From: an uncultured Chlamydiae bacterium
GTDB lineage: Bacteria > Chlamydiota > Chlamydiia > Chlamydiales > Parachlamydiaceae
Assembly: GCA_963754655.1 (NCBI GenBank)
Contig: CAVWGN010000001.1
Span: 896,001 to 960,000, forward strand
Direction of reading: 5' to 3'
Length of the DNA stretch: 64,000 bases
Every line of letters begins with the position of its first letter. Position 1 is the first letter of the stretch. Under the pieces are notes generated by a model, which saw only the letters and a program-made list of their open reading frames with translations, had not been told where the DNA came from and did no database searches. This document shows positions 45,557-47,171 of the stretch, piece by piece. The position numbers and the translations under genes are program-made.

Positions 45557-45585
45557 TTGTATGTTAACTTCAAGTGTGATAAAAT
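45557..45585 (+). promoter_or_regulatory. Putative sigma70-type promoter of the leader-brnQ operon
   Basis: TTGTAT-N17-TAAAAT with extended -10 TG, ~30 nt upstream of leader 1. Confidence 0.5.
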
Positions 45586-45616
45586 TAAGGATCTAACAAA
45601 AGGTTTGACTTTAGCT

Positions 45617-45691
45617 ATGTTCAATAAAGCGCACATCAATATCAGTATTCAGATTATTATTAACCCCATTTTGAGGTGCGGACTTATGTGA
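45617..45691 (+). CDS. Attenuator leader peptide 1 (24 aa, Ile-rich): MFNKAHINISIQIIINPILRCGLM
   Basis: Translated by hand; 7 Ile including ATT-ATT-ATT; AAAGG upstream; followed by a terminator. Confidence 0.85.
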   Translation: MFNKAHINISIQIIINPILRCGLM

Positions 45692-45714
45692 TTGGCCTTA
45701 GCTAAACATAGGTT

Positions 45715-45756
45715 AAAAAAAGACCGCACTCTCGAAAGAGGTGTGGTCTTTTTTTT
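45715..45756 (+). terminator. Attenuator terminator 1
   Basis: AGACCGCACTCTC-GAAA-GAGGTGTGGTCT + T-run; 5' strand can alternatively pair with GAGGTGCGG at 45673-45681. Confidence 0.9.
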
Positions 45757-45820
45757 GTAGGTGAATAAGAAAATTAAAATGAAGCCTTAACTTAAAATGT
45801 AACGTAAAGAGAAAAATTAA

Positions 45821-45904
45821 ATGATCAACATGTGCATAGAGTCCATTAGTATTCGAATTATTGTGGTTATCCACGTTAAATCGAGGTGCGGACCTATGCT
45901 TTAG
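45821..45904 (+). CDS. Attenuator leader peptide 2 (27 aa, Ile/Val-rich): MINMCIESISIRIIVVIHVKSRCGPML
   Basis: Translated by hand; 7 Ile + 3 Val (IIVVI cluster); homologous to leader 1. Confidence 0.85.
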   Translation: MINMCIESISIRIIVVIHVKSRCGPML

Positions 45905-45930
45905 GCTTTTTGCCCATAGTTTGGTTAGAG

Positions 45931-45967
45931 AAAAACCGCACGCTCAAAAGAGGTGCGGTTTTTTTTT
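45931..45967 (+). terminator. Attenuator terminator 2
   Basis: AAAAACCGCACGCTC-AAAA-GAGGTGCGGTTTTTTTTT; 5' strand can alternatively pair with GAGGTGCGG at 45883-45891. Confidence 0.9.
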
Positions 45968-46028
45968 GCTATCAAGCTGCTGTAGAAAATCTATAACAGC
46001 ACAATTAAAGGTTACAAAAAGGGATTAT

Positions 46029-47171
46029 ATGAAAAATAAATGGCTTGTTGTTAGTACTGGATTTGCTTTGTTTTCAATGTTTTTCGGATCAGGGAATTTA
46101 GTTTTTCCAATTACAGTTGGTCAAGAAAGCGAAGGACATTATCTTCTTGCTGCTTTAGGAATTTTATTTACGGGAGTAGTAGTTCCTTTTCTTGGAGTAT
46201 TGGGAATGATGCTCTACAAAGGAGATATTTATAGTTTTTTTAGTTGCTTTGGCAAAAGAGGGACTTTCTTGTTCTCGTTTTTGGCGCTAGCATTAATGGG
46301 TCCTTTCGGAGTTCTTGCTCGTTGCTTAACCGTGGCACATGGTGCTTTATTGCTTTTATTACCAAATGCTTCGCTACCTCTTACTAGCATTTTAATGTGT
46401 GTTGTTATTTATTTTTTGGCTGTAAATAAGAATAAGATTGTTACAACATTAGGAACAGTATTAACTCCATTTTTACTTTTAGCGATAGCTATGATTGCAT
46501 TTTTTGGTTTAAACTAGGGGAATTTACCTGAAGCAACAACCACTAGCAGCTGGAATGCTTTAAAAAATGGCTTTTTCCAAGGTTACCAAACAATGGATCT
46601 TTTAGCTGCATTTTTCTTCTCTCAATTTGTGATTAAGCATCTTCACAGCAAGCTATCACCTAATGATGGGGAGACTTCATTGCTTAAATATTTTACCAAA
46701 TCTGCTTTGATTGGTGCAGGCATTTTGTCTTCAGTGTATTTCGCTTTGGTATTACTCGGCTGGATTTACTCACCTCTTTTGACTAATACACCCCCACAGG
46801 AAATGTTGGGAATGATTGCTATTGAATCTCTCGGAACAATAGCAGCTCCATGCGTATGCTTAGCGGTCTTATTTGCCTGTTTGACGACAGCGATTGTTCT
46901 AGCTTCGTTATTTGCAGACTTTATCCGTAAGGAGGTTTCAAAGGATAAAATTGGTAATAAGCAAGCCTTATTTATCACTTTAGGGATAGGTTTTGTAGTA
47001 TCAACTTTCGATTTTGTTGGAATTGCCAAATTTTTAGGTCCAGTACTTGAAGCTGTTTATCCCGCTTTAATTGCTTTGACGTTAGTCAATATCACAAATA
47101 AATTTTTTGGTGTAAAGTCTTCACATTGGCCGTTTACATTAACATTGGCAGCCAAGCTATGCTGGCTATAA
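46029..47171 (+). pseudogene. brnQ: Branched-chain amino acid:cation symporter BrnQ with one in-frame TAG (46515-46517)
   Basis: GFALFSMFFGSGNLVFP, GYQTMDLLAAFFF, ACLTTAI motifs; both ORF halves share a frame. Confidence 0.9.

Follow-up and report, generated by a model that had tools for sequence, protein, structure and literature searches.

Two homologous candidate leader-peptide attenuators in series upstream of brnQ in an uncultured chlamydial bacterium

Which signal governs the branched-chain amino acid transporter gene brnQ in environmental chlamydiae, and why should it be read twice? The question is raised by a 64,000-nucleotide (nt) window of an uncultured member of the Parachlamydiaceae (G000:C1:896001-960000, where G000 is the genome of the window, 3.16 Mb in size; other G and L numbers denote the genomes and loci compared, and all positions given below are those of the window). 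Here, at 45557-46029, a promoter-like site is followed by two homologous units and then by brnQ. A sequence-only reading of this locus had reported the promoter-like site, two leader open reading frames (ORFs) rich in Ile or in Ile and Val, a shared 11-nt motif, hairpins, intrinsic terminators and brnQ. Using the sequence and the ORF list of 45200-46300, we found all of these parts and were able to refine their coordinates. The same reading had proposed two leader-peptide attenuators in series, and this proposal gains support from the conservation of the element, the retention of its ORFs, their Ile bias, target genes that include ilv genes and leuC, and an ordered pair of units at 10 loci. 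We put the probability of ribosome-mediated, leader-peptide transcription attenuation in response to Ile, or to Ile and Val, at roughly 80%. The anatomy of the locus, its alternative pairings, its conservation, its codon bias and its gene association are observed; leader translation, ribosome stalling, the competition in time between the helices and an effect of the series are inferred from them.

All features of the locus lie on the forward strand. The promoter-like site at 45557-45585 consists of a -35-like hexamer (45557-45562), a 17-nt spacer, a TG (45577-45578) and a -10 hexamer (45580-45585). Situated between a tRNA-Met gene and unit 1, it would be a promoter of the extended -10 type. 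The leader ORF of unit 1 (45617-45691) has 24 codons, seven of them for Ile (two ATC and five ATT), and a TGA stop codon at 45689-45691. Three consecutive ATT codons stand at 45653-45661, and the run ends 12 nt 5' of region 2, the 5' strand of the antiterminator. Region 2 is the 11-nt motif at 45673-45683, lies 6 nt 5' of the stop codon and pairs with 45724-45733. It is followed by a middle hairpin (45681-45714), which includes the leader stop codon, stacks under the antiterminator helix in the predicted folds and has changed pairs in its inner stem in relatives. The intrinsic terminator of unit 1 (45722-45756, -19.6 kcal/mol), whose arms we call regions 3 and 4, is built from 45722-45733 and 45738-45748 with one bulged base and eight T (45749-45756).

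Unit 2 repeats this plan. Its leader ORF (45821-45904) has 27 codons with seven Ile and three Val, a run of these at 45845-45877, and a TAG stop codon at 45902-45904. The same 11-nt motif forms region 2 (45883-45893), which pairs with 45936-45945 in the terminator (45934-45967; arms 45934-45945 and 45950-45960, one bulged base, T-run to 45967; -17.7 kcal/mol). A candidate anti-antiterminator strand, region 1 (45834-45844), pairs with 45890-45899, at the 3' part of region 2. The T-runs after both terminator stems comprise 8-9 T. An alignment of the two units over their full length shows 66% identity across 122 columns, with conservation in the paired segments and divergence in the spacers. The brnQ gene (46029-47171, ATG at 46029) matches the Pfam family Branch_AA_trans with an E value of 7e-24 on its N-terminal part.

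A search upstream of brnQ homologues had been suggested as a check by the earlier reading, and it showed that the element is conserved at homologous loci. When relatives were searched at the DNA level, homologous leaders turned up ahead of orthologous brnQ genes in five other genera. A covariance model built from eight units was then used on the genome of the window, on its family and on an even sample of the chlamydial order. In the genome of the window it has just two matches, units 1 and 2 (E 1.5e-20 and 1.6e-20). Within the Parachlamydiaceae it matches 23 of 73 genomes, one of them with a weak match to a different leader family, and the even sample of the order yields matches in 19 of 151 genomes, among them strong ones in nine further families. 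The element stands upstream of orthologous brnQ in 22 of the 73 family genomes and in 12 genomes of nine other families. The total is 46 units at 37 loci in 34 genomes, from the Parachlamydiaceae and nine other families.

The genes behind these units provide the strongest functional argument, since the element is tied to branched-chain amino acid genes, including classic targets of attenuators, as judged from family assignments. Among the 37 loci the downstream gene is brnQ at 32, acetolactate synthase at two, leuC at one and an ORF of no known family at two. Both acetolactate synthase genes encode the biosynthetic large subunit (TIGR00118, 571 and 580 bits at a cut-off of 538), and the leuC gene reaches 606 bits with TIGR00170. 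Neither acetolactate synthase nor leuC was found above the family cut-offs in the genome of the window, so its organism must import branched-chain amino acids. One genome carries two brnQ loci on the same contig (L078 and L079 in G205:C14), each with a tandem pair; the leaders are Ile-rich at one and Val-rich at the other, which suggests a tuning of the element to the individual paralogue. As separate observations, a tandem attenuator pair at L053 (G060:C378) precedes a 248-amino-acid ORF without a Pfam or NCBIfam family in place of brnQ, and at L054 (G012:C2:1413300-1417700) a divergent leader with a terminator has two copies at a distance of 2.5 kb, one ahead of a 681-amino-acid ORF of no family and the other ahead of brnQ. 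The pairing of regions 2 and 3 is weak in these divergent units.

Are both units needed? We defined a tandem pair as two units on the same strand roughly 10 to 90 nt apart and found such pairs at 10 loci in six families (G000, G020, G057, G063, G060, G205 twice, G168, G030 and G119); two of them precede acetolactate synthase. The tree of the units is mostly unresolved, with support for 2 of 23 inner branches, and nearest-neighbour identities were used instead. By this measure each unit of the window is closer to the unit in the same position in other genomes than to its own partner. Among the nine remaining tandem loci, the 3' unit resembles unit 2 of the window more closely than unit 1 in nine of nine cases, and the 5' unit is more similar to unit 1 in seven of nine. 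Hence the duplication is old, the order has been kept and both units have been retained, and the intact state and constant order of the two units fit selection on the pair.

The main competitor of a serial function is that regulation comes from one unit, its partner being either a superfluous remnant of a duplication or simply an additional terminator. In 17 of the 22 family genomes with the element there is a single unit, belonging to one type or the other, so one unit suffices for some lineages. However, the two units of the window score equally with the covariance model (108.1 and 108.0 bits), both keep the ORF, region 2 and the terminator, and a dead copy would hardly be expected to persist in a pair whose order is constant across six families and which also heads acetolactate synthase genes. 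We therefore regard a silent second unit as rather unlikely and lean, from the comparison of these loci, towards two units that act as a functional series. Such a series could make the off-state tighter or the response steeper, or it could provide a logic of Ile versus Ile plus Val.

The leaders themselves are kept as ORFs throughout the family of units. Every one of the 46 units has an ATG ORF of at least 12 codons with a stop ending 4-19 nt after region 2. Counted over the last 20 leader codons of 28 units, the share of Ile is 23.6%, compared with 7.3% in the long ORFs of the window and 3.9% in the other two frames. At other loci the leaders are Val-rich or Ile/Leu-rich and the RNA core is retained. 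The best explanation of the codon content is that both units would be tuned mainly to isoleucine and that unit 2 would also read valine.

It might be argued that the leader ORFs are incidental and that a trans-acting factor, such as a protein, a tRNA bound in a T-box-like manner or a small ligand, binds the conserved RNA. The high conservation of region 2 and of the middle hairpin at the nucleotide level would suit such a factor, as would the weak appearance of the leader ribosome-binding sites. Yet a binding factor does not account for a correctly placed stop codon in every unit, for a three-fold Ile excess in that frame only, or for leaders that change their amino acid elsewhere on a constant RNA core, and no T-box or riboswitch family is matched even at E ≤ 10. 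A T-box leader was also rejected on its own account, with no T-box match in Rfam and only about 55 nt of ORF 5' of region 2. We consider control by a trans-acting factor improbable.

The end of the leader peptide deserves separate attention. Its C-terminal residues are identical in 41 of the 46 units, often with a Pro two or three codons before the stop, as one would expect of a nascent arrest peptide (such as TnaC or SecM) that senses a signal other than tRNA charging. However, in 5 of the 46 units the nucleotides of region 2 persist although they are read in another frame and the end of the peptide differs, which argues for a constraint on the RNA and not on the peptide. The codons for the conserved residues barely vary, in line with RNA pairing and not with peptide selection, and an arrest peptide would give the Ile/Val bias no role. 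These comparisons make an arrest peptide very improbable and point to region 2 as being under RNA rather than peptide constraint.

Finally, the hairpins might be the ordinary terminators of the tRNA-Met gene (CAT; 45308-45381, called by ARAGORN and scoring 74.9 bits with the Rfam tRNA family) and of the peptidase S10 gene, which lie upstream of both units on the same strand, combined with small ORFs that arose by chance, but this is scarcely credible, since in 34 genomes the element accompanies brnQ, ilvB and leuC and not the upstream genes, the promoter-like site separates the tRNA gene from unit 1, and 0 of 24 brnQ upstream regions without a model match have a terminator-like site. These 24 regions belong to 15 more distant orthologues and nine paralogue loci, including the two other brnQ paralogues in the genome of the window, neither of which has a model match or a terminator-like site; two more upstream regions were too short to judge because the contigs end there.

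How could translation of the leaders be coupled to termination? The predicted folds are more stable than those of dinucleotide shuffles, with z values of -4.45 and -6.30 for the units and -7.78 for the whole 481 nt, and 0 shuffles were as good. The best upstream partner of the 5' arm of the terminator is region 2 in both units, with -15.7 kcal/mol (z -3.3) in unit 1 and -14.7 kcal/mol (z -2.9) in unit 2. Likewise, 23 of 28 units of the family have the most stable upstream partner of this arm where the leader ORF ends (z ≤ -2.1 against shuffles). We then folded only the nascent RNA that a ribosome positioned on the Ile run would leave exposed on its 3' side, up to a point short of region 4. In these folds a helix of regions 2 and 3 is stacked on the middle hairpin, with -24.3 kcal/mol in unit 1 and -21.9 kcal/mol in unit 2. 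With the ribosome placed on the stop codon, the terminator alone is predicted to form in both units. In the alignment of the 46 units, 90.3% of the cells of the helix between regions 2 and 3 are paired, versus 34-52% when the partner is slid by one to three columns. There is next to no variation in its columns, and G-U pairing accommodates the C-to-U changes of region 3. The terminator helix has 94.5% pairing and 57 double-change cells, a number reached by 0 of 500 shuffles, in an alignment that had been fitted to that structure. In leaders of the unit 2 type, codons 5-8 pair with the 3' part of region 2, with p of about 0.07 in the window and 0.01-0.03 in three relatives; the helix is also present in the minimum-free-energy fold of unit 2, and it recurs among leaders of this type only.

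In the mechanism that we propose, transcription would start near 45592, from the promoter-like site, and a ribosome would translate the short leader in each unit. When charged tRNA-Ile (in unit 2 also charged tRNA-Val) is plentiful, the ribosome would arrive at the stop codon and cover region 2 together with the 5' side of the middle hairpin. Region 3 would then pair with region 4, and RNA polymerase would terminate at the T-run. With scarce tRNA-Ile, the ribosome would presumably stall on the Ile run, 12-30 nt upstream, and leave region 2 free. The free region 2 would pair with region 3 before region 4 is made, and by winning this kinetic competition it would let the polymerase read through. 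Both terminators would have to be passed for transcription to reach brnQ and probably also the ORF behind it. The output would then be the product of two read-through probabilities, which should lower the basal expression and make the response steeper.

Several observations weigh against this mechanism. Once the RNA is complete, the terminator fold is favoured over the antiterminator fold by about 12 kcal/mol, so read-through needs kinetic trapping; a kinetic dependence of this kind, as in classical attenuators, is what the folding models lead us to infer. Covariation in the helix between regions 2 and 3 was not above that of shuffles (185/500 and 91/500). The claim of the sequence-only reading that the paired elements are conserved while the spacers diverge thus stands for complementarity and, as regards covariation above the control, for the terminator, but not for the antiterminator; the proposed antiterminator pairing rests on complementarity, not on covariation. 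For unit 1, an anti-antiterminator helix of regions 1 and 2 in the minimum-free-energy fold was rejected, having p of about 0.27 against shuffles and not being common to the relatives, and in most relatives of the unit 1 type such a pairing was no better than in shuffles. A consensus scan over the locus called no terminators and no promoter on the forward strand, a miss that goes with the one-base bulge in both terminator stems and with a -35 hexamer that matches at only three of six positions. The Shine-Dalgarno-like sites of the leaders are weak and lie 12-17 nt from the ATG codons. Among the sequencing runs listed as containing 45400-46600 there was no RNA run; the two listed were soil metagenomes with small shares. 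The 46 units are mutually related, and the counts made on them are not independent. Searches of the other three genomes in the genus of the window gave no match to the element; this brnQ orthologue is also absent there, and the best brnQ matches in these genomes are at the level of paralogues.

A further objection comes from brnQ itself. The gene in the window contains an in-frame TAG at 46515-46517, which was missed by the earlier reading and stands where the intact orthologue has Gln; the remaining frame is open. The encoded protein is 80% identical to the intact orthologue of G023. Orthologues are broken in other genomes too: G016 has a TGA in the codon that follows this position, G062 has one at a different place, and the copy in G049 is frameshifted. 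This brnQ paralogue seems, from these sequences, to decay repeatedly. In the genome of the window the switch may therefore control a decaying brnQ, or it may act mainly on the 273-amino-acid ORF behind it. This ORF (47211-48032, forward strand) begins 40 nt after brnQ and has a weak ATP-grasp_3 match (E 5.7e-4, below the cut-off) and no match in NCBIfam or the PDB. A homologous ORF directly follows brnQ in four other genomes (G009, G119, G165 and G104), and the two genes are possibly part of one operon. Farther downstream, a 424-amino-acid ORF on the reverse strand (48389-49663), with a small ORF beside it (49587-49907), may encode a TnpB of the IS200/IS605 type, which its sequence resembles.

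Does the element belong to a family that is already known? A search of Rfam over 44800-46600 gave 23 matches at E ≤ 10, and none apart from tRNA reached the gathering score of its family; there was no T-box and no riboswitch among them. The best match of unit 1 is Thr_leader (RF00506; 25.9 bits, E 0.035, gathering score 55), through the terminator core and the repeated codons. Further rows below threshold were Thr_leader with 21.2 bits and Leu_leader (RF00512) with 16.1 bits (gathering score 50). With scores so far below the gathering scores, membership in either family was rejected. The thr operon leader of Escherichia coli responds to Thr and Ile; the chlamydial leaders differ in having no Thr run. 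What the units do combine is a codon-biased leader ORF, an intrinsic terminator, complementarity for an antiterminator, a suitably placed stop codon and target genes of amino acid supply, which are the marks of an attenuator.

A close likeness is to the leaders of ilvGMEDA (ilvL) and of ilvBN (ivbL) in Enterobacteria, for which a leader ORF with branched-chain codons, alternative helices and an intrinsic terminator are likewise described (PMC6123439). Relatives of the chlamydial element also head acetolactate synthase genes. The chlamydial element differs in that no relationship to these leaders was found by sequence or in Rfam, in its main target, which is an importer in a genome without the pathway, in reading mostly Ile, and in its two units in series. 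Transporters of the LIVCS/BrnQ family in Firmicutes are subject to amino-acid-specific T-box antitermination that reads tRNA charging, and paralogues differ in specificity (PMC2494555). The gene family is the same; the sensor there, as described, is uncharged tRNA that binds the RNA and not a translating ribosome. Within the phylum, a trpL leader-peptide attenuator is predicted for trpRBA of Chlamydia trachomatis, which concerns a different amino acid and a different gene and is a single unit (PMC3937554; PMC7755916). An earlier survey noted that a function was associated with hardly any attenuator predicted in Chlamydiae (PMC2965389).

The sequence-only reading had known of no described serial ribosome-mediated attenuators on brnQ or in chlamydiae. 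This statement needs to be narrowed, since serial attenuators with leader ORFs have been published: the mgtCBR leader of Salmonella contains two short ORFs (mgtM and mgtP), each governing an attenuation-like switch, which act independently and additively (PMC3641672). These two switches sense ATP and proline, respectively, and are not described as related in the abstract, whereas the chlamydial units are homologous, have a terminator each and carry overlapping codon signals. For brnQ and for environmental chlamydiae, no report of a leader-peptide attenuator was found in the literature searched, in a search conducted mostly at the level of titles and abstracts and with subscription literature outside its scope. 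The element is thus a new RNA family with a classical mechanism, as proposed here, an unusual target and a conserved serial arrangement.

Other leaders came to light in the course of the comparison. A scan of the genome of the window for a terminator, its upstream partner and an ORF gave six candidates for attenuators of this architecture; two are units 1 and 2, and the other four were unconvincing and were rejected. At L068, near 64338 of G000:C1 on the reverse strand, a Leu-rich 30-codon ORF (7 Leu) is followed by a terminator-like hairpin and a 301-amino-acid frame; this candidate does not convince and may be internal to a gene. The family Parachlamydiaceae also holds a Phe/Tyr leader family (L057-L065, in G059, G076, G078, G081, G062, G084, G042 and G087), which is not present in the genome of the window. 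Its ORF, of 22-24 codons, contains runs of Phe/Tyr codons; a G-rich strand is conserved at the stop codon, and there is a terminator. A DNA search at E ≤ 0.01 matches 26 of 73 genomes, and the leader with its terminator is well matched (E < 1e-6) in about 15. Three of its loci precede a Trp/Tyr permease (PF03222, tested on one), and the gene after another locus of this family may be a DAHP synthase, which it resembles.

Leader-peptide attenuation is textbook knowledge for the biosynthetic operons of free-living bacteria. Here the same logic would act on an importer in an obligate intracellular lineage without the pathway, where it is duplicated in series and the pair is kept across families. 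For the study of RNA regulation, the element is a natural case in which to ask what purpose two homologous ribosome-read switches serve, as variants with a single unit and with two units exist. For annotation, it is an RNA family that is missing from Rfam and marks branched-chain amino acid genes. For chlamydial biology, it provides a concrete cis-acting candidate sensor of amino acid supply in a group with few known regulatory mechanisms.

A more far-reaching idea is possible, though we hold it only tentatively and think it doubtful on present comparisons. The ordered pair may be an ancient cassette of this chlamydial order, functioning as a single device, that served ilv biosynthetic genes before it moved to brnQ as lineages became auxotrophic. 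Its units would read Ile and then Ile plus Val, forming a graded AND of two tRNA-charging signals, and brnQ paralogues would have been re-tuned to Val by rewriting of the leader. If this were true, a main way in which these intracellular bacteria respond to amino acid starvation would be the ribosome-read attenuation of importers.

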